Of a DNA stretch of 64,000 nt, positions 3,031-46,180 are shown piece by piece (position 1 is the stretch's first letter; every line of letters starts with the position of its first letter). Origin of the DNA: Minisyncoccota bacterium. Its GTDB lineage: Bacteria > Patescibacteriota > Minisyncoccia > Phycocordibacterales > UBA9973. Where the stretch lies: the NCBI GenBank assembly GCA_017991395.1, contig JAGOQQ010000002.1, forward strand, positions 61,925 through 125,924. The letters run 5' to 3'. Both the position numbers and the translations under genes were made by a program. The notes beneath the pieces are model-generated. The model had not been told where the DNA came from. It did no database searches and was given only the letters and a program-made list of their open reading frames with translations.

Positions 3031-3096
3031 GAGGGGAAGAAATACAACTAAAGTCTAAAGACTAACTACTAAAGACTTCCTTCTCCTTCCGCGTCT
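3031..3096. repeat. dispersed ~66 bp intergenic repeat (ggggaagaaatacaactaaagtctaaagactaactactaaagactt...ccgcgtc); second copy at 17063..17128
   Basis: Near-identical copy upstream of truB, seen by direct comparison. Confidence 0.7.
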
Positions 3097-3152
3097 GTCA
3101 GCGTTCAGGCTTTGCATAAGTGTTCCCTTATCCGCGTAAGTCTGCGATTACT

Positions 3153-8214: not shown

Positions 8215-8262
8215 GTCGCGGACCTAACGCGGAAGGTCGCGGAACGGACGCGGAATTTTGCA
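8215..8262. repeat. GCGGA-type short tandem motif cluster (ggtcgcggacctaacgcggaaggtcgcggaacggacgcgga)
   Basis: Same motif family at 17126..17170, 24661..24700 and 25139..25170. Related CGTAGAACG clusters at 19855..19893, 45675..45712, 46088..46180 and 54547..54585. Confidence 0.65.
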
Positions 8263-17062: not shown

Positions 17063-17128
17063 AGTAGGGGAAGAAATACAACTAAATTCTAAAGACTAAC
17101 TACTAAAGACTTTCTTCTCCTTCTGCGT
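17063..17128. repeat. second copy of the ~66 bp dispersed repeat seen at 3031..3096
   Basis: Direct comparison shows a few mismatches only. Confidence 0.7.
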
Positions 17129-17190
17129 CCGTTCCGCGTAGGTCTGCGTTTAGTCCGCGACTTCCGCGATTTGTGTGTTAGATTTGAGAT

Positions 17191-22923: not shown

Positions 22924-22997
22924 CCGTCCTTAGCTCAGTTGGTTAGAGCACAGAGCTTATACCTCTGGGGTCCATGGTTCGAATCCATGAGGACGGA
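22924..22997 (+). tRNA. tRNA-Ile with anticodon UAU (reads AUA)
   Basis: Manual cloverleaf: acceptor CCGTCCT/AGGACGG, D GCTC/GAGC, anticodon stem CAGAG/CTCTG with loop CTTATAC (anticodon TAT), T-arm CATGG-TTCGAAT-CCATG, discriminator A. No encoded CCA. Confidence 0.75.
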
Positions 22998-23046
22998 CAA
23001 ACATAAGAAGCGACACCGTCAGGCGTCGCTTTTTATGTTTGTCCGT
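22984..23046 (+). repeat. ~62 bp direct repeat (tRNA-Ile 3' end plus terminator hairpin); second copy at 23200..23262
   Basis: atccatgaggacggacaaacataagaagcgacaccgtcaggcgtcgctttttatgtttgtccg appears twice about 216 bp apart. Confidence 0.8.
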
Positions 23047-23832: not shown

Positions 23833-26487
23833 CTATTCAAAATGAAATGTGCTAAATTTTGAAACTTTTTCTTTGAGTATCGGGTATGAATCAAGCTCAC
23901 TATCAGATTCAACCATTTTGAGTGCTTCATTTCGGGCAGCTTCAACCATTTTGAGATTTTTGATTGCCTCCATTCCAAGGTCTGTGATACCCCACTGTTT
24001 TCCTCCTCCAAGTTCTCCCGCGCCACGAAGTTGCAAATCAAGCTCTGAAAGTTCAAATCCATTTTTCGCTGTTTTAAGTGCCTTAAGTCTGTCGAGAGTT
24101 TTTTGAGTTTTTGCATCTGCAAAAAGATAACAATACGCTTGATGATTTCCACGGATAACACGACCCCGAAGCTGGTGAAGCTGTGCGAGTCCAAATCTCT
24201 CCGCACCTTCGATGATTATCATTGTGGCGTTTGGCACATTCACTCCCACTTCGACCACCGAAGTTGCGACAAGAATATCGATTTCGTGGCGAGAAAAGGA
24301 TTGCATGATCTCTTCCTTTTTCTCTTTGGTCATTTTTGAATGAAGTATTCCAATTTTTGAACCTTTGAATACTTCCTTTGAAAGTCTCTCTGCTTCACTT
24401 GTGACTGATTTCACTTGCAGTGCCATTTCTTGATCCGGGTCTGGGTCGTTGATTCGCGGACAAATCACATAAAGCTGACGACCGGATGCCATTTCCTTTT
24501 TTATAGCGTCATAGGTTTTTTGTCTACCGTCCACACCAATAATTTCTGTGATGATTGGTTTTCGACCACTTGGCATTTGGTCGATAATACTCACGTCCAA
24601 ATCTCCGTAGATTGTAAGTGCGAGAGTACGAGGAATAGGCGTTGCGGTCATGGACAACAGGTGGGGCATGATCGCGGACTGACGCGGACTTGACGCGGAA
24701 CGAGCTTGATTTACATTTCGTGCAAGCTGGTATACTACTCTTTCAACATCGAGTGTTGATTTACCGAAATTGACTAAAAGTCCGAGTTCAAAATCTGATC
24801 CTTTGAGATATGACCACAGTTGTTTCTTTTCCTGGGTTCCGAGAAACGGAAGTGTTTTTAGCTCTACAACAATTTTATTTTCTACAACAAAGTCCGGAAT
24901 GTATGTACCCACTTTTTTACCTCTAAATTTAATATCAATTCTATGTTCTTGAGAAAATTGTATATTATTTTTTTTCAATTCTATCGCCAAAGCTTTTTGA
25001 TAAATAATTTCTTTATGCCCAAGCCCAAGTTCTTGTTTTACGTTGAATAGAGATCTTCTGATTGCATACGTAAGGTCGCGGAATAGCAATGAGTCATCGA
25101 CTGTTTTATCAAAATGAGTATTCTCGAGGTCGGATTTTTTCCGCGTGAGTTCTGCGCTGTCCGCGTCAAACTTGCCCCTAGCAAGGAGGAAGCGTTGGTT
25201 GGTTCCAAATCTATGTTGTTCATCGATTATCACAAGTGCGAGATGTTTAAACTTCACGCTTTTTTGGATGAGTGTGTGCGTTCCAATTACAATCGGGATA
25301 TCACCAGAGGCGACCCATTTCATGAGCTGAGGTTTTGAAACTGTTGTCCACGAATCTGGGTTGACCTTTGAGGGGAATTTTCTGCACCCACTTCCTGTCA
25401 TGAGTGCGATGGATATCCCTGTGTGCCTGAAATACGTGATGAAGTTTTCAAAGAGTTGTGTTGCGAGAATTTCTGTCGGTGCCATATATGCCACTTGAAG
25501 TGAACCAAATTTTTGATCATTTGGTCGACTCGAAATAATTGAGTGAGACACCACTGCGGCAACTGCAGTCTTTCCACTACCCACATCTCCTTCAAGGAGT
25601 CGTGCCATTGGATGAGGTTTTTTTAAATCAGAAAGTATTGTGTTGATTGAATCCATCTGACCTTTAGTCGGAGTGAAGGGAAATCTGCTGATGAATGACT
25701 CAGTGTCTTTTTTTGATGTGGTGACAGTGAATGCATTGTTCTCACGAAATATTTTTTTATCTTGTTGTTTTTTGAGTTGGATAACAAACACTTCTTCAAA
25801 TGCAAAACGCTTTCGTGCGACTTCAGCGTGTTCTTTTTTCTTTGGAGTATGAACCCAGACATATGCTGTTGAAAGAGAAGGAAGGTTGTACTTTTTGAGA
25901 ATCGACTCCGGAATGTATTCTTCGAGTGTGTCGAGTAATCCAGATTTAAAAATTCTATCTATTGCATGATAGAGCCATTTTGAGGTGACAAACTTTGTTT
26001 CGGGATAAATTGGATATCCAAAAACTTCATGCGAATTTCCCTCATCGCTAAATAATGATGAATGCGAATCAATAGGCAGGTCGGGTGTTTTTTCAAATTC
26101 AGGGTTGGTCAGATAAAGTCCCGTACTTCCTTCGGCGACTTTTCCTGTGATTTTTACGGTATCACCATCACGAAGCATTTTTGCAATGTATGCTTGGTTG
26201 AACCACATCACCTTCATTTTTCCAGAAAGATCTTCGATCCACGCTTCAGCCATTGGAATTTTTGTACGAAAAGACTTCTTTGTTTTTGGTGCACTGATGG
26301 TGCCGTAGATTGTGATACTTTCTCCTTTTACCGCATCAGCGATTGACTTTATGGTAGAGAGGTCGCTGTATCGTGTGGGAAAATAGCGAAGTATATCTTC
26401 AATGGTCTGAAGTTTGATTCGGGTTAGCGCTTTTTTTTGTTGTTCATCAATTCGAAAATGTTTCTCGATTGTATCGGTTAGATTCAT
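23833..26487 (-). CDS. recG: ATP-dependent DNA helicase RecG carrying an in-frame ~180-aa insertion between helicase motifs II and III
   Basis: Wedge/N-terminal domain, Walker A LEGDVGSGKTAVA, motif II IIDEQHRFG, motif III MTATPIPRTL and C-terminal helicase motifs (VATSVVEVGVNVPNATMIII, QLRGRVIRG). Motifs II and III are separated by ~185 aa, versus the ~25 aa between these motifs in E. coli RecG as recalled from memory. Confidence 0.85.
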   Translation of the reverse strand: MNLTDTIEKHFRIDEQQKKALTRIKLQTIEDILRYFPTRYSDLSTIKSIADAVKGESITIYGTISAPKTKKSFRTKIPMAEAWIEDLSGKMKVMWFNQAYIAKMLRDGDTVKITGKVAEGSTGLYLTNPEFEKTPDLPIDSHSSLFSDEGNSHEVFGYPIYPETKFVTSKWLYHAIDRIFKSGLLDTLEEYIPESILKKYNLPSLSTAYVWVHTPKKKEHAEVARKRFAFEEVFVIQLKKQQDKKIFRENNAFTVTTSKKDTESFISRFPFTPTKGQMDSINTILSDLKKPHPMARLLEGDVGSGKTAVAAVVSHSIISSRPNDQKFGSLQVAYMAPTEILATQLFENFITYFRHTGISIALMTGSGCRKFPSKVNPDSWTTVSKPQLMKWVASGDIPIVIGTHTLIQKSVKFKHLALVIIDEQHRFGTNQRFLLARGKFDADSAELTRKKSDLENTHFDKTVDDSLLFRDLTYAIRRSLFNVKQELGLGHKEIIYQKALAIELKKNNIQFSQEHRIDIKFRGKKVGTYIPDFVVENKIVVELKTLPFLGTQEKKQLWSYLKGSDFELGLLVNFGKSTLDVERVVYQLARNVNQARSASSPRQSAIMPHLLSMTATPIPRTLALTIYGDLDVSIIDQMPSGRKPIITEIIGVDGRQKTYDAIKKEMASGRQLYVICPRINDPDPDQEMALQVKSVTSEAERLSKEVFKGSKIGILHSKMTKEKKEEIMQSFSRHEIDILVATSVVEVGVNVPNATMIIIEGAERFGLAQLHQLRGRVIRGNHQAYCYLFADAKTQKTLDRLKALKTAKNGFELSELDLQLRGAGELGGGKQWGITDLGMEAIKNLKMVEAARNEALKMVESDSELDSYPILKEKVSKFSTFHFE
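24650..25200 (-). other. in-frame GxxExxY-family (PD-(D/E)xK-like, 23S-rRNA-IVS-type) domain inserted inside recG, flanked by GCGGA-repeat clusters
   Basis: Insert sequence ...LGLGHKEIIYQKALAIELKKNNIQFSQEHRIDIKFRGKKVGTYIPDFVVENKIVVELKTLPFLGTQEKKQLWSYLKGSDFELGLLVNFGKSTLDVERVV contains the literal G-H-K-E-I-I-Y (GxxExxY) and a PDF...ELK PD-(D/E)xK core. Nucleotide flanks: gcggactgacgcggacttgacgcggaac at 24661-24700, and its partial inverted counterpart at 25139-25170. Confidence 0.6.
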
Positions 26488-29872: not shown

Positions 29873-30090
29873 AAGTATGATTATATCATATAAAAATGAT
29901 CACTTTTTTCTTTGCGGAACCGGCGAGATTCGAAACTTACAGTTTCAGTACACCTTTTCGATTTGTTTGGAGAAATCTCCTCACAAACAACGAAAAGCTC
30001 TTCGAATCTCTCTCGGAAGTACCGCAGGGTACTTCCTCGTCTCCGCGAACAAAAATGGTCCGGAATGATTCCGGACTCATTTTTTGTAAT

Positions 30091-30293
30091 CGCGGTGTGT
30101 ATTGAACGAAGTTCGAATGTATTTTGAATTGAATCCTGACGACCAATGATGCGCGCCTCGGACACGCTCGCGGACTCGCGTGTGCAAAAACCAAAAAATT
30201 TCCTTGCATTTTTCTCGCGTCTCCTCCCCCCACCCCTCCGCCGCGAAGCGGAAAAAGAAATGGAAAGGAAATTTTTGGTTTTGCTTCGCCGTT
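30091..30293. repeat. inverted repeat arm A (~203 bp) with an internal long palindrome (aaaccaaaaaatttccttgcatttttc...gaaaaagaaatggaaaggaaatttttggttt around a GC-rich core)
   Basis: Reverse complement of 32270..32474. ORF-track translations on opposite strands are identical over about 65 aa (AKQNQKFPFHFFFRFAAEGWGEETREKCKEIFWFLHTRVRERVRGAHHWSSGFNSKYIRTSFNTHR). Confidence 0.85.
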
Positions 30294-30573
30294 TCAGTCT
30301 CCGAAAAGAGCAATCTTATTTTAACATTTTTGTTTGCTCTTTTCTCCACCCTCACGGCGACCGAGGCGCTTCCTCTCCGCGTTTGGTGGTGACTCTAAAC
30401 TCCGTGGCTTCGACGGAGAAAGTGCCAACTCATCAAAGTGGAGCCTCGCCATACAAAATTCTTTAAGGAATGGCGAGGCGCAAATCCTATTATGTGTTTG
30501 CCCCACCCTCCCGTGCGCACACATCATCCCCGCCGTTTTGGGAGAATATTATAAAACGGCGGGGATGGCTCCC

Positions 30574-31317
30574 TTATTTAAAATTCATAGTCCACTTATC
30601 TTTACCTTCCCAACCATCAAACATTTTTCCATGTCCCATTTCTCGGCTCAGTTTTTCAATACCAGAAAGTAAATCTTGTTGAGTTTTAAGGTCTGCTGTT
30701 TCTAAAATATGTTTTATTTTTTCTACAAATTCTTTGGGCGACCAAGGCAAATTTTCCAAAGGATACTTTTCTAGTTCTTTTTGAACATAACCGAGAAATG
30801 GTCTATGCCTGCCATTCATGGCAAATACGAGTGTAAGTAAATCAAGCATGGAGTTTACTGCCTCCAAATGAGCACCAAACATATTATTATTGCGAATACA
30901 TTTTACAGAGCGATATACACCATTTACATACCCGTCAATCCACCAATCAATAAATTTATTCAATTTATCTGGCGGTATTTGACCTTTTTCCTTAACCAGT
31001 TTTTCCAATTCTCCGTCTGTCCTGTCTACAAGAATTTTGACATGAGCGTAATTATATCTGTCCCATGATTCTGGGCTTTCCCAGCCAGCAAATGTTTTGA
31101 AATCAGAGAAAGAACGCACTGACAAATCCACATTATCTAAAGTCATCTTTTCGTATTTTTCGTGGATTGTGTTAGCGGCTTCGTCTTTAATAATCATTAC
31201 AGCATCATAATCGGAATGTTCATTTTCAAAACCCTTGCCACGCGAACCAACAAGAATGAAGCCGACAACGTCCTCGTTTTCTTGTGCCTCTTTAAGTATT
31301 TTTTCGTAGTCGTTCAT
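30574..31317 (-). CDS. ANT(6)/AadK-like minimal nucleotidyltransferase (putative aminoglycoside adenylyltransferase-family protein)
   Basis: N-terminal NTase motif VGFILVGSRGKGFENEHSDYDAVMII (GS...DxD) and a helical C-terminal domain. The layout resembles the ANT(6) N-terminal motif (GSRANINIPKDEFQDYDITYFV in ANT(6)-Ia) as recalled from memory. Confidence 0.5.
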   Translation of the reverse strand: MNDYEKILKEAQENEDVVGFILVGSRGKGFENEHSDYDAVMIIKDEAANTIHEKYEKMTLDNVDLSVRSFSDFKTFAGWESPESWDRYNYAHVKILVDRTDGELEKLVKEKGQIPPDKLNKFIDWWIDGYVNGVYRSVKCIRNNNMFGAHLEAVNSMLDLLTLVFAMNGRHRPFLGYVQKELEKYPLENLPWSPKEFVEKIKHILETADLKTQQDLLSGIEKLSREMGHGKMFDGWEGKDKWTMNFK

Positions 31318-31321
31318 AGAT

Positions 31322-31981
31322 TTATTTTAACATTTTATTAGCTAATAATAATTTTTGAATAAGTTCCGAAATATTTTTATGGACAGGCCAAATTTTTTGT
31401 ATTTCGGCACGCATATCTTGATGTTGAAGGTATCCCTCATCTCGTTTTCCATTCATTAGATCGGAAAACTCAAGATTCAAAAGTTCCGTCAAAGATTCTT
31501 TGATGTCGTTATACGCCAATTTTGAAAGTCCCTCGTCTAGCAACTTTTTACCGAAAGTGTGCCATGTGTAGAAATGTAAAAGTTCGTGCATTATCGTGTT
31601 GTTGGAAAATTCCGAGCCGATTCTGACGAAAAAATAGTTTTGCTCGATGTTGTAGGTACAACGCTCGTTGTGGGTCAAATAAACAGTAATAATCGGGGCT
31701 GGGTAAGAAATGCCGAATAACTTTTCCACTCGCTCAATGAAAATGGGTTCGGCAATTTTCCATCTTGCCTCTACAGCAACAATTTCCTTGTTAGCGTCGA
31801 AACCACTTATTTTGTCTTGTTCCCCAATAAACGCCTTGACCTTTTCCGTTTCAAAATTTTCGCCGTATTTTTCGGAAAACGAAATTTGAAACTTTGTTGG
31901 TTTCTTACTATTCGTCGCGTTCGTTCCCTTGATAAAGTTTTCAACGTCCTTATCTATATTGTATGCAAAATGTAATTTCAT
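31322..31981 (-). CDS. HExxH-motif protein (putative ImmA/IrrE-like zinc metallopeptidase), function unknown
   Basis: IMHELLHFYTWH contains HExxH. It is co-oriented and adjacent to an XRE-family HTH gene, as in ImmR/ImmA modules. Confidence 0.35.
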   Translation of the reverse strand: MKLHFAYNIDKDVENFIKGTNATNSKKPTKFQISFSEKYGENFETEKVKAFIGEQDKISGFDANKEIVAVEARWKIAEPIFIERVEKLFGISYPAPIITVYLTHNERCTYNIEQNYFFVRIGSEFSNNTIMHELLHFYTWHTFGKKLLDEGLSKLAYNDIKESLTELLNLEFSDLMNGKRDEGYLQHQDMRAEIQKIWPVHKNISELIQKLLLANKMLK

Positions 31982-31985
31982 AAAT

Positions 31986-32198
31986 TTATTTCAAAAGTTC
32001 ATCACTTGCAACTCCTAACGCTTGAGCGATTTTCTCAATGGTTGCGAGTGTTGGATTTCCTTTTCCACTCTCAATATTGCTCATTTGAGCGCGATCAAAA
32101 CCGAGAGCACGACAAATGTCGCCTTGCGACATTTTCTTTCGCTCTCGTATGCGCTTTATGTTTCTTCCCAACTTAATTGACGATGTTTTCATATCCAC
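31986..32198 (-). CDS. XRE-family helix-turn-helix transcriptional regulator (70 aa)
   Basis: LGRNIKRIRERKKMSQGDICRALGFDRAQMSNIESGKGNPTLATIEKIAQALG is a canonical HTH_XRE. Confidence 0.75.
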   Translation of the reverse strand: MDMKTSSIKLGRNIKRIRERKKMSQGDICRALGFDRAQMSNIESGKGNPTLATIEKIAQALGVASDELLK

Positions 32199-32269
32199 AG
32201 TTTATATTCTAGCAGTTTGTTGTGTCTTATATCAATAATGTGATATATTACAATAGATGAGAATGTTGA

Positions 32270-32474
32270 TAACGGCGAAGCAAAACCAAAAATTTCCTTT
32301 CCATTTCTTTTTCCGCTTCGCGGCGGAGGGGTGGGGGGAGGAGACGCGAGAAAAATGCAAGGAAATTTTTTGGTTTTTGCACACGCGAGTCCGCGAGCGT
32401 GTCCGAGGCGCGCATCATTGGTCGTCAGGATTCAATTCAAAATACATTCGAACTTCGTTCAATACACACCGCCA
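32270..32474. repeat. inverted repeat arm B (reverse complement of 30091..30293), directly fused to 32471..32587
   Basis: Sequence identity, plus shared ORF-track peptides on opposite strands. Confidence 0.85.
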
Positions 32475-32587
32475 GAAAACGAAATCGGATTTTAGAGCCG
32501 AAATGGGGTCGCGCCGAAGGCGCGACACTAGGGCATTCCCCCCGCCGAATCCAGAATCCAAAAGGGTTTTCCACGCTCCGCGTGGCT
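32471..32587. repeat. second inverted repeat: reverse complement of 33994..34110, which abuts the tRNA-Ser 3' end
   Basis: Peptide RKRNRILEPKWGRAEGATLGHSPRRIQNPKGFSTLRVA is encoded on opposite strands at both loci. Confidence 0.85.
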
Positions 32588-32609
32588 CGTCGTTTGCCAA
32601 TACAATTCT

Positions 32610-34160
32610 ATGAATAATCAAACCAAAAAGTTTTTCATATATACTCGCAAGTCTACGGACGACAAAGACAGACAAGTCCGCAGTATTTCCGACCAGTTGA
32701 GTGAGTTAAAAGAGTTAGCGCTGAAAGAGCAACTGGAAGTGATGGATGTCTTTGTCGAAAAGCAGACCGCCAAAATACCAGGTCGTCCCGTGTTTAATGA
32801 AATGATGACGAGAATGGAAGCGGGCGAAGCGTCTGGTATTTTGGCGTGGCATCCCGATAGACTTGCTCGCAACTCGGTAGATGGAGGAAAAATCATCTAC
32901 CTCGTTGATACTGGAGTAATTTCAGAAATGAAATTCCCAACTTTTTGGTTTGATCCGACACCGCAAGGCAAATTCATGCTCTCAATCGCTTTTTCGCAAT
33001 CCAAGTATTATGTGGACAATTTGAGTGAAAATATCAAGCGCGGACATAGAAACAAAGTGAAGGAAGGGATATGGCCTCAAATGTCTCCGATTGGATATGT
33101 GAACGAGAAAGGAAAAGGTATTGTGCCACATCCTGAACTTTCGATTTTAGTAAAAAAGACATTTGAGGCATATGCAACTGGAAACTTCACTTTGCGGGAA
33201 GTCCGCGACAAATTTAACGCGCTTGGATTGAAAAGAAAAAGCGGTAGAGAGCTTGCGGTGTCGAATTATCAAAAACTTCTCAAAAATCCTATTTACACTG
33301 GTCTCATGAGGTATAACGGAGAGATTTTTGAGGGAAAGCACGAACCGATTATTTCAAAGAAACTTTTTGATTCTGTTCAAGAAGTGATGAGTCGAAAATC
33401 TAAACCTCATTCCAAAGGTTTGAAACCATATATTTATCGGGGATTTTTCCGTTGCGGAGAATGTGGATGTTTTATAACTACCGAGCAACAAAAAGGTCAT
33501 AACTATTTGCGATGTACCAAACGGAAAAATCCTTGTGAGCAAAAATATGTTCGTGAGGAGCTCATCACTTCTCAAATTCAAGAGGAAATCAAAAAAGTTT
33601 CTTTGCCTCTCGATTGGACAGAATGGATGATTGCCGAAAATGCAAAGGATCGGCAATCGGAAGTCCAATCAAGTGAGATTTTTTCTCAAAAAATACAAAG
33701 TAAAATTTCTCTTTTGGATGCAAAAATGGAGAAGCTGATGTCTGCGTATTTGGAAAGTGCATTTTCGCTTGAAGAATATCGTGATGCTAAAAGTGCCATG
33801 GTTAACTCAAAACAGCTTCTCAAAGAGAAATTATCAGCTTTTGAGAAAAAATCTCATAATCGGTTCGAACTTACCGAAAAGTTTTTGAAATACAATATGG
33901 AATTGGCAAACGACCGAACAAATGAGGAAAATACTCATTTGTTCAAAAAAGTCGGTTCGAACTTTCAAATTAAGGATCGAACCGTACTTTTTGAGCCACG
34001 CGGAGCGTGGAAAACCCTTTTGGATTCTGGATTCGGCGGGGGGAATGCCCTAGTGTCGCGCCTTCGGCGCGACCCCATTTCGGCTCTAAAATCCGATTTC
34101 GTTTTCTGGCGGAGACGGAGAGATTCGAACTCTCGAGGCCATTACAGCCTGCCTCCTTAG
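32610..34160 (+). CDS. large serine recombinase (resolvase/invertase N-terminal catalytic domain, recombinase domain, zinc ribbon, coiled-coil). The annotated 3' end runs through the repeat and tRNA-Ser, so the true stop may be earlier or the C-terminus repeat-derived
   Basis: FFIYTRKSTDDKDRQVRSISDQ (catalytic Ser in YTRKS), GILAWHPDRLARN, recombinase-domain residues, and a Cys cluster RCGECGCF...CTKRKNPC. Confidence 0.8.
   Translation: MNNQTKKFFIYTRKSTDDKDRQVRSISDQLSELKELALKEQLEVMDVFVEKQTAKIPGRPVFNEMMTRMEAGEASGILAWHPDRLARNSVDGGKIIYLVDTGVISEMKFPTFWFDPTPQGKFMLSIAFSQSKYYVDNLSENIKRGHRNKVKEGIWPQMSPIGYVNEKGKGIVPHPELSILVKKTFEAYATGNFTLREVRDKFNALGLKRKSGRELAVSNYQKLLKNPIYTGLMRYNGEIFEGKHEPIISKKLFDSVQEVMSRKSKPHSKGLKPYIYRGFFRCGECGCFITTEQQKGHNYLRCTKRKNPCEQKYVREELITSQIQEEIKKVSLPLDWTEWMIAENAKDRQSEVQSSEIFSQKIQSKISLLDAKMEKLMSAYLESAFSLEEYRDAKSAMVNSKQLLKEKLSAFEKKSHNRFELTEKFLKYNMELANDRTNEENTHLFKKVGSNFQIKDRTVLFEPRGAWKTLLDSGFGGGNALVSRLRRDPISALKSDFVFWRRRRDSNSRGHYSLPP
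33994..34110. repeat. inverted repeat arm C (partner of 32471..32587), ending at the tRNA-Ser CCA end
   Basis: See 32471..32587. Confidence 0.85.
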
Positions 34161-34195
34161 CAAGGAGGTACGTTAGACCACTCCGACACGTCTCC
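34107..34195 (-). tRNA. tRNA-Ser (anticodon GCU), class II with a long variable arm and encoded CCA
   Basis: Reverse complement GGAGACGTGTCGGAGTGGTCTAACGTACCTCCTTGCTAAGGAGGCAGGCTGTAATGGCCTCGAGAGTTCGAATCTCTCCGTCTCCGCCA. Anticodon stem CCTCC/GGAGG with loop TTGCTAA, T-arm AGAGA-TTCGAAT-CTCT, discriminator G. Confidence 0.85.
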
Positions 34196-34299: not shown

Positions 34300-34386
34300 G
34301 GAGGATTGGATGAGTGGTTTAAATCAACGGTTTACTAAACCGTCGTTCCTTAATTGGAACCGTGAGTTCGAATCTCACATCCTCCG
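34300..34386 (+). tRNA. class-II (Ser-like, G73) tRNA with anticodon loop UUACUAA, i.e. an apparent ACU anticodon; possibly aberrant or a pseudo-tRNA
   Basis: Acceptor GGAGGAT/ATCCTCC (7 bp). 3-bp D stem GAT/ATC. Anticodon stem ACGGT/ACCGT. Variable-arm hairpin GTTCC-ttaatt-GGAAC. T-arm GTGAG-TTCGAAT-CTCAC. Discriminator G. Confidence 0.55.
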
Positions 34387-34388
34387 CA

Positions 34389-46087: not shown

Positions 46088-46180
46088 CCACGTTCTGCGT
46101 TCTACAATCCACGTAATATATTCGAATCAATCTTGCATAGAACGTTCTGCGCTCTACGTTCCGCGTTCTACCCGTAGGCG
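46088..46180. repeat. CGTTCTACG-type repeat cluster (right flank, inverted relative to 45675..45712)
   Basis: ccacgttctgcgttctac...agaacgttctgcgctctacgttccgcgttctacc. Confidence 0.65.

Follow-up and report, generated by a model that had tools for sequence, protein, structure and literature searches.

Inteins carrying homing endonucleases are in-frame parasitic inserts that occupy very conserved sites of conserved proteins, helicases among them. Each encodes a nuclease and lacks start and stop codons of its own; they are sporadically distributed, occur as empty, intact and decayed alleles, and have a history at odds with that of their host. Here we describe an element which appears to share these traits, and which lies within the recG helicase gene of a Minisyncoccota bacterium (assembly GCA_017991395.1, contig JAGOQQ010000002.1, positions 61,925-125,924 of the forward strand; this stretch of 64,000 nt is called the window, and all unlabelled coordinates refer to it). 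The recG element differs from inteins in having neither a Hint domain nor splicing junction residues, in being apparently retained in the mature protein on disordered linkers, and in its nuclease, which is of the GxxExxY/PD-(D/E)xK type, not LAGLIDADG or HNH, and is accompanied by inverted repeat arrays. We interpret positions 24670-25170 as a copy of a selfish element of the homing type, translated as part of the host protein and not spliced out, and we put the probability of this interpretation at roughly 0.68.

The nearest published analogue that we found is the ShiLan-type insertion in DNA methylase genes of actinophages, which is stop-free, is neither an intein nor an intron, shows homing-like evolution, encodes an endonuclease and, according to prediction, forms a loop that projects from the host protein (PMC11855218). 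The recG element is likewise a stop-free, non-splicing insertion with a putative endonuclease. The HNH nuclease of ShiLan is, however, out of the host frame, whereas the recG nuclease is in the host frame and constitutes a domain of the host protein. The two nucleases belong to different superfamilies, the ShiLan host is a phage gene while the hosts here are bacterial housekeeping genes, and terminal arrays and miniature derivatives belong to the recG-type element. The six nuclease-less miniature copies described below have an analogue in the Rickettsia palindromic elements (RPEs), which are in-frame MITEs (miniature transposable elements with inverted repeats), i.e. short palindromic inserts in unrelated housekeeping genes that are translated and tolerated (PMC10969869). 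No nuclease partner of the RPEs is mentioned in that review, whereas the full-length form of the recG-type element has a conserved nuclease; moreover, an RPE is one long palindrome in contrast to the periodic arrays of a 6-7 nt motif found here, and the site of the recG-type elements stays fixed between diverged orthologues.

Free-standing homing endonuclease genes offer a further parallel as small nuclease genes wedged into conserved operons, and so do the pairings of repetitive extragenic palindromes with their associated tyrosine transposases (REP/RAYT), in which one protein family goes together with a short repeated DNA motif. The present case differs from both in that the GxxExxY family has no assigned function (a survey of the PD-(D/E)xK superfamily published in 2012 lists the function of PDDEXK_3 as 'Unknown'; PMC3424549), and in that inverted, helically phased arrays of the repeat stand on both sides of the gene itself. 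A typical member of the GxxExxY family is a free-standing protein of about 125-150 aa, whereas the recG copy is an internal domain of an 884-aa helicase. Our literature search (GxxExxY, PF13366, Patescibacteria RecG insertions, in-frame palindromic elements), which left subscription journals mostly outside its coverage, found no description of the element and no published link between GxxExxY proteins and inverted arrays.

The insert in recG and its nuclease domain

The features of the locus are the following.

23833-26487, minus strand: recG coding sequence, one 884-aa open reading frame (ORF), split in-frame by the inserted element
24670-25170, minus strand: inserted element, 501 bp, 167 codons, aa 440-606 (FDADSAEL...PRQSAI)
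25140-25165, minus strand: upstream arm (in coding sense), three copies CGCGGA/CGCAGA/CGCGGA, encoding DADSAELTRK, the N-side linker
24673-24699, minus strand: downstream arm, three TCCGCG copies spaced by 11 and 10 nt in coding order, encoding SASSPRQSA, the C-side linker
24733-25077, minus strand: core of the GxxExxY / PD-(D/E)xK domain, aa 471-585
25000-25020, minus strand: GHKEIIY, aa 490-496
24892-24894, 24862-24864 and 24856-24858: predicted catalytic residues D532, E542 and K544, respectively
Predicted junction-spanning peptides of an insert-bearing RecG: LLAR/GKFDADSAELTR and SASSPRQSAIMPHLLSMTATPIPR

The host protein is a RecG helicase, with a wedge domain, the superfamily 2 helicase motifs I-VI and the C-terminal RecG domain 3 (Pfam matches RecG_wedge, DEAD, Helicase_C and RecG_dom3_C), and it matches the solved structure of T. 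maritima RecG (1gm5) with E=8e-116. Its score with the recG profile TIGR00643 is 607 bits against a cutoff of 659, the match being broken into two stretches by the insert. The interval between DEQHRFG (motif II) and MTATPIPRT (motif III), which a first-pass annotation of the sequence had put at about 185 residues, was counted as 184, in contrast to 19-23 residues in 51 insert-less Patescibacteria RecG proteins (all sequences compared in this work derive from metagenome assemblies). In phmmer alignments residues 439 and 609 of the query RecG correspond to residues 515 and 518 of 1gm5, and residues 435 and 602 to residues 410 and 415 of E. coli RecG (9wm0); the extra segment lies between residues ~436-440 and 602-608, and its counterpart is 2 residues in T. 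maritima and 4 in E. coli.

Comparison with the recG genes of three close relatives (P0002, P0003 and P0004) established the boundaries of the element. Nucleotide identity was 81-90% outside the insert and 39-57% inside it, and it broke at 24670 and 25170, after GGCAAG (LARGK) and before ATGCC (MPH), so that the junctions are LARGK/FDAD and QSAI/MPHLL. The earlier description of a discrete in-frame cassette, bounded by inverted repeat clusters and behaving like mobile DNA, is supported. A start codon, a ribosome-binding site and a stop codon are all missing from the element itself.

Profile searches gave full-length, above-threshold matches to the GxxExxY family, as anticipated by the claim that the insert is a complete domain of this family. 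PF13366 (PDDEXK_3) aligned with aa 471-583 over profile positions 2-116 of 117 (E=7e-32, 110.6 bits, cutoff 22), and TIGR04256 (GxxExxY) with aa 471-585 over positions 1-116 of 116 (E=4e-33, 114 bits, cutoff 35); the strings GHKEIIY, IPDFVVENKIVVELK and LGLLVNFG were all found in the insert. Motif, catalytic residues and fold are shared with the family. Both the GxxExxY motif and the D...ExK signature are present, G488, G490, H491, E493, Y496, D532, E542 and K544 are invariant in 65 insert-bearing RecG proteins, and the full motif set is kept in 79 of 80 loci found by tblastn. A sequence search of the PDB (E<=1) gave no solved homologue of the insert. Its modelled fold is of the PD-(D/E)xK type, with the restriction-endonuclease-like order alpha-beta-beta-beta-alpha-beta, and the structural matches of the model include Hjc and the homing endonuclease I-Bth0305I.

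Structure prediction further supported an independent domain. When the domain was modelled alone, its core had a predicted local distance difference test score (pLDDT) of 88-98, and the linkers scored near or below 50; in the model of the full-length RecG the insert was folded over aa 470-586 and was carried by low-confidence linkers (aa 438-469 and 588-604, pLDDT <50). In these models the insert is a separately folded nuclease domain, held by disordered linkers on the loop between helicase motifs II and III. The nuclease fold and the motif set are intact, from which a nuclease role is predicted.

Constraint on the flanking arrays

The first-pass annotation had also noticed GCGGA-type repeat clusters, which flank the insert in inverted orientation and recur at other intergenic sites of the window, and both observations hold. 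Viewed on the plus strand, CGCGGA stands three times within 24673-24699 and TCCGCG/TCTGCG three times within 25140-25165, the two arms share perfect 10-nt inverted repeats (TGACGCGGAC / GTCCGCGTCA), and five further arrays are intergenic. The window contains 14 occurrences of the heptamer CGCGGAC where 2.05 would be expected, a number reached in none of 100 shuffles (0/100), and arrays with at least two copies number 7 against 0.34 expected.

The arms of the element consist of ACGCRGA upstream and its complement downstream, in 2-4 copies each, placed one DNA helical turn apart. The motif is degenerate among lineages (ACGCRGA(A/C)), its variants including ACGCGGA, ACGCAGA, CACGGAT and CGCTGAT, and linkers of homologues such as NAEQTRKNAE, DADKTQTKRG and SASSPRxSAS resemble one DNA motif read in differing frames. 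Array positions and frames were measured on the DNA of 80 species genomes and of the window. CGCGGA was concentrated 80-160 nt upstream of the GxxExxY codon (107 occurrences vs. ~2.5 expected) and its complement 300-360 nt downstream of it (93 occurrences), with almost none between. The upstream motif, mostly spaced by 10-11 nt, occurs in all three frames (44/40/32), which no constraint at the protein level would produce, thus the constraint is on DNA. The downstream motif shuns one frame (57/43/1), which argues for added selection on the translated peptide. In none of ~80 in-frame copies do the arms contain a stop codon in the used frame, and they translate to disordered linkers rich in Ser, Ala, Pro, Thr and charged residues. 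The arms are ~74% complementary over a mean of 58 nt (79 copies). Their mismatches are G:U in 157 and A:C in 316 cases among the in-frame copies, and 141 and 166, respectively, among free-standing copies, in which the most frequent motif spacings are 10 nt (123 cases) and 11 nt (52 cases). With no G:U preference and with helical-turn spacing, the arms look like sites at the DNA level rather than an RNA stem. These data establish the architecture of the arrays and the DNA-level constraint on it.

Complementary arms around an insert could also mean that the insert is removed before the protein matures, either because the arms form a processed RNA stem, as in an rRNA intervening sequence (IVS) or an intron, or by intein-like excision from the protein. 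We consider this the least probable of the explanations weighed here. It is true that the minimum-free-energy RNA fold of the region pairs the two arms, and that these bacteria are rich in rRNA insertions (PMC11270868). However, this fold is no stabler than those of shuffled sequences (z = -0.8), G:U does not outnumber A:C among the arm mismatches, and a search of Rfam with 24300-25500 (both strands, E<=1) gave no match, including the covariance models of group I and group II introns; an intron or RNA intervening sequence was rejected on these grounds. The frame that stays open in ~80 in-frame copies, and the peptide-level selection implied by the downstream motif, also speak against removal. 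Protein splicing was rejected as well, in line with the first-pass annotation: no Hint or intein family matched RecG in Pfam at E<=0.1, and the junctions (K/FDAD and SAI/MPH) have no Cys or Ser at the start and no His-Asn at the end, thus they are unfit for splicing. In sum, the insert appears from its sequence to stay in mature RecG. In this respect the recG copy departs from usual homing elements, which reside in a self-splicing intron or intein, or are free-standing.

The label '23S-IVS-type', under which the domain had been described, was not supported, nor was the statement confirmed that this family is normally encoded within 23S rRNA intervening sequences. The insert has no Pfam match to 23S_rRNA_IVP, there is no rRNA within the 64-kb window, and a survey of rRNA insertions in these bacteria lists LAGLIDADG, GIY-YIG and 23S_rRNA_IVP ORFs and never mentions PDDEXK (PMC11270868). 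Those free-standing relatives whose surroundings were readable lie between protein-coding genes, rRNA genes not having been searched directly for GxxExxY. The label seems to confuse GxxExxY with the separate 23S_rRNA_IVP family.

Host genes, relatives and history of the insert

Among 121 RecG proteins (the query and its 120 best homologues) the insert was found in 70 (69 of the 120 homologues), of which 66 are intact and 4 degenerate, and 51 proteins are empty. About 60 further species-level genomes carry it in recG, thus the insertion is not lineage-specific, contrary to what had been supposed. Many of the insert-bearing RecG proteins are named 'GxxExxY protein' by NCBI. The insertion site in recG is identical in all carriers, and the pattern is that of a homing element: one site in diverged orthologues, sporadic presence, empty and decayed alleles.

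The insert is not confined to RecG. A scan of one genome per species yielded 80 loci, spread over many Patescibacteria groups, and their hosts include RecG (59), LepA (15), LeuRS (2), SecA (1) and membrane enzymes (2); in LepA the site is always between the G2 region and DTPGH. A scan of metagenomes with a 15-sequence alignment added a ValRS-like synthetase, a second site in SecA and a glycosyltransferase. The copies in LepA, LeuRS, the ValRS-like protein, SecA and the membrane enzymes have the same repeat-coded linkers as the recG cassette. Several host genes, and fixed sites in recG and lepA, are established by these scans.

Free-standing, miniature, decayed and empty forms exist beside the full in-frame copies. 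The free-standing relatives have 124-157 aa, are 40-52% identical to the insert, and sit between ruvA and ruvB, upstream of tuf, or between pepA and efp. Inverted arrays of the same kind accompany them; one free-standing gene (L087), for instance, begins within an ACGCAGA array and finishes within a TCYGCG one. In a collection of 74 metagenome loci of the free-standing family (56 free-standing, 18 within larger ORFs) significant flanking inverted repeats were detected in 55, with a mean inverted-repeat score of 18.2 vs. 9.6 for shuffled sequences and 11.1 for direct orientation. In the six miniature copies, which have no nuclease, 6-30 nt separate a forward from a reverse array, and each copy lies in-frame within RecG, LepA, LeuRS or a membrane protein; a further match, in L007, was discarded as a false positive inside an ordinary enzyme. 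The elements thus have the terminal inverted repeats and the non-autonomous derivatives of terminal-inverted-repeat transposons and MITEs. They do not show the several near-identical copies that such transposons have, the window containing a single nuclease copy: a six-frame search with hidden Markov models over its 64 kb found none beyond that of recG.

Three further arrangements were seen among these loci. At L085:1905-4441 a free-standing GxxExxY gene lies between ruvA and ruvB of a genome with the order ruvC-ruvA-ruvB, and is accompanied by the variant arrays ACGGAT/ATCCGT; that the family stands beside recombination genes more than once may reflect a target preference or chance. In L012:957-3623 and L035:4729-7413 a RecG has a full element at motif II/III and a nuclease-less miniature further downstream in the same ORF. 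A membrane glycosyltransferase-like ORF (L063:4929-7515) contains two different GxxExxY-type inserts, the second with the usual ACGCAGA arms, the first diverged and flanked by a low-complexity repeat (YSADSDTFGNSDY...), which suggests that other arm motifs accompany other nuclease lineages.

The histories of insert and host are discordant. In the clade of the query the host parts of RecG are 88-96% identical. Outside the insert, the query protein shares 96.4% identity with P0002, 92.3% with P0004 and 90.2% with P0003, while the insert core is only 52% identical to that of P0002 (0.516 vs. 0.964 for the host) and 51% to that of P0003. P0004-P0007 share a decayed insert of the same length, without GxxExxY, ExK, repeats or Pfam match, and this decay has left the RecG reading frame open. 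The opposite situation is found in P0009, whose RecG falls within a group of insert-less sequences and shares 83% identity with the empty P0114. The P0009 insert resembles those of P0027, P0056 and P0068 at 83-84% identity, the hosts being only 61-63% identical, which we take as a sign that it arrived horizontally at the same site; in nucleotides, P0009 and P0027 are 57% identical outside the insert vs. mostly 70-87% over the insert core. Over 2145 pairs the identities of host and insert are only weakly correlated (Spearman 0.15). A neighbour-joining tree requires at least 4 gains or losses of the insert, and about 42% of close RecG proteins are insert-less, including a tight clade (78% mutual identity) nested among carriers. 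The disagreement between the two phylogenies is judged from the identities and from this tree.

With these data, a one-off ancestral gain of the domain, inherited vertically with a few precise losses and with no present mobility, is very unlikely. The identical insertion site of all carriers, the grouping of insert domains mainly by host gene and the lack of recent duplicate copies among those observed are what such an ancient inert insertion would leave. They have to be set against hosts that are 96% identical with inserts 52% identical, and hosts 61-63% identical with inserts 83-84% identical, against the Spearman coefficient of 0.15, a carrier nested among insert-less sequences, the multiple host genes and the miniature derivatives. 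Besides, an inert insert would not retain every catalytic residue.

The retention of these residues would fit domestication, i.e. a RecG with a built-in structure-specific nuclease, which would branch-migrate and cut forks or junctions like Hef, Dna2 or AddAB, and which would be kept since it helps repair in genomes with few repair genes. The catalytic residues are invariant in 65 diverged RecG proteins, conservation of the nuclease core equals that of the helicase (mean pairwise identities of 0.609 and 0.614, respectively), only 4 of 70 copies have decayed, and the insert has a weak Pfam match to phage endonuclease I (E=0.03). However, the same cassette occurs in LepA, LeuRS, the ValRS-like protein, SecA and membrane glycosyl enzymes, where a junction nuclease would have no role. 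About 42% of close RecG proteins do without it, a tight clade nested among carriers included, near relatives of the query retain a dead version, inserts have been swapped between nearly identical hosts, and RuvABC is present, too, in one organism that carries a free-standing homologue. Unrelated hosts, decay of copies and the swapping of inserts make a recruited RecG nuclease unlikely; the strong conservation of the core keeps domestication alive as a minor alternative. Of the two possibilities that the first-pass annotation had named, a nuclease domain now fused into RecG is therefore the less likely one: the cassette is found in the other hosts listed, and its decay in P0004-P0007 did not cost RecG its frame. 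The other, a tolerated parasitic insertion, comes closest to our interpretation, yet it understates the conservation of the core.

In the homing-type reading that we prefer, the nuclease, synthesised within the host protein as one of its domains, would cut or nick insert-less or rival alleles at highly conserved sites, and repair would copy the element in, the conserved flanking codons serving as homology. The arrays would be binding sites, on one face of the DNA, for the nuclease or for a partner. Invasion, decay, loss and re-invasion would follow each other in a cycle like that of homing endonuclease genes. Since nothing would splice the element out, only those insertions that the host protein tolerates would survive.

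It must be noted that several points weigh against this reading. Cleavage, array binding and mobility are all inferred from sequence patterns. The insert domains group mostly by host gene, which indicates that much of the history within a gene was vertical. No near-identical copies were seen at two sites of one genome, and in the sole pair from the same metagenome-assembled genome (L039 recG and L078 lepA) the inserts are 65% identical. No target-site duplication was evident at the junctions inspected, where no recent insertion with a matched empty site existed. As neither such a duplication nor a near-identical second copy was seen, a recent transposition from gene to gene is unsupported. The intergenic arrays of the window are solo and unpaired. 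Decay in 4 of 70 copies would make the element stabler than many homing endonuclease genes, and, together with a core conserved equally to the helicase, it also fits a benefit to the host. The discordant pairs could have arisen by ordinary recombination of recG alleles, without help from the nuclease. The trees are neighbour-joining trees only, and the sample of in-frame copies is biased, because frame-breaking copies cannot be recovered as full-length proteins.

Intergenic arrays, neighbouring genes and wider meaning

The intergenic arrays of the window are listed below.

3088-3103 and 3131-3146, minus strand: two solo arrays of 2 copies each, intergenic
8217-8254, plus strand: solo array of 4 CGCGGA with spacing 11, 10 and 11, intergenic, between adk-like and map-like genes
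17122-17168, minus strand: solo array of 5 copies, intergenic, just upstream of a truB-like gene
46146-46165, minus strand: weak array of 2 copies with 14-nt spacing, intergenic, which may be due to chance

The arrays go with a live nuclease: the window and the P0002 genome contain intergenic ones, and none was found over 31 kb of P0004, the genome with a decayed insert. The array on the truB side is at the same place in P0002 and absent in P0004. No partner arm was found at the intergenic arrays, and translation of the adjoining DNA gave no ORF of the GxxExxY family. They could be footprints of lost elements or regulatory sites. Solo ACGCRGA arrays (2-5 copies, mostly 9-11 nt apart) precede the starts of map-like, truB-like and rpsN-like genes. 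A sequence of ~55 nt (GGGGAAGAAATACAACTAAAKTCTAAAGACTAACTACTAAAGACTTYCTTCTCCT), common to 3035-3087 and 17068-17121, directly adjoins two of the intergenic arrays; its ends, GGGGAAGAAA and TTTCTTCTCC, can pair, it is non-coding in all frames, and it has no Rfam match at the gathering threshold.

Elsewhere in the window, a gene for a large serine recombinase (32610-34160, with Resolvase, Recombinase and Zn_ribbon_recom domains) adjoins a tRNA-Ser gene and is bracketed by perfect 120-nt inverted repeats (32469-32588 / 33993-34112), so that the region 32469-34112 looks like an invertible or integrative module. Beside it, inverted repeats of 215 nt with 97% complementarity (30079-30293 / 32271-32485) bracket a 2-kb segment with two ORFs, one of which has a nucleotidyltransferase domain (30574-31317) and the other no family match (31322-31981); 30079-32485 may be a second invertible segment. 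Two divergent tRNA-Ser genes lie at 34107-34195 (minus strand) and 34300-34387 (plus strand), to one of which ARAGORN assigns the unusual anticodon ACT, and a tRNA-Ile gene with the anticodon TAT is at 22924-22998.

Taken beyond this one copy, the results lead to a wider proposal, to which we give an even chance. GxxExxY proteins would be the nucleases of widespread small mobile elements that have gone unrecognised and that carry inverted, phased arrays of a 6-7 nt motif. The copies of Patescibacteria would be intein-like without splicing, and would home into housekeeping genes (recG, lepA, leuS, valS-like, secA) at the most conserved positions. They would be made solely as a domain inside the host protein, with the arrays doubling as stop-free linker code, and mature essential proteins would permanently carry a live nuclease.

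If this is true, a large protein family that has been annotated by its motif alone would gain its first testable function, and retention in the host protein would be a third lifestyle of homing nucleases, beside introns and inteins. It would show how far essential enzymes tolerate a foreign folded domain, and it would explain why NCBI gives the name 'GxxExxY protein' to dozens of RecG proteins of Patescibacteria, and why LepA, LeuRS and SecA can be oddly long in the tiny genomes of these bacteria, for which gene callers and orthology pipelines should account. Arrays that can be read in three frames, and are spaced by one helical turn, would represent a natural design for domain insertion with built-in linkers, and the nuclease together with its array motif could form a new DNA-recognition pair.

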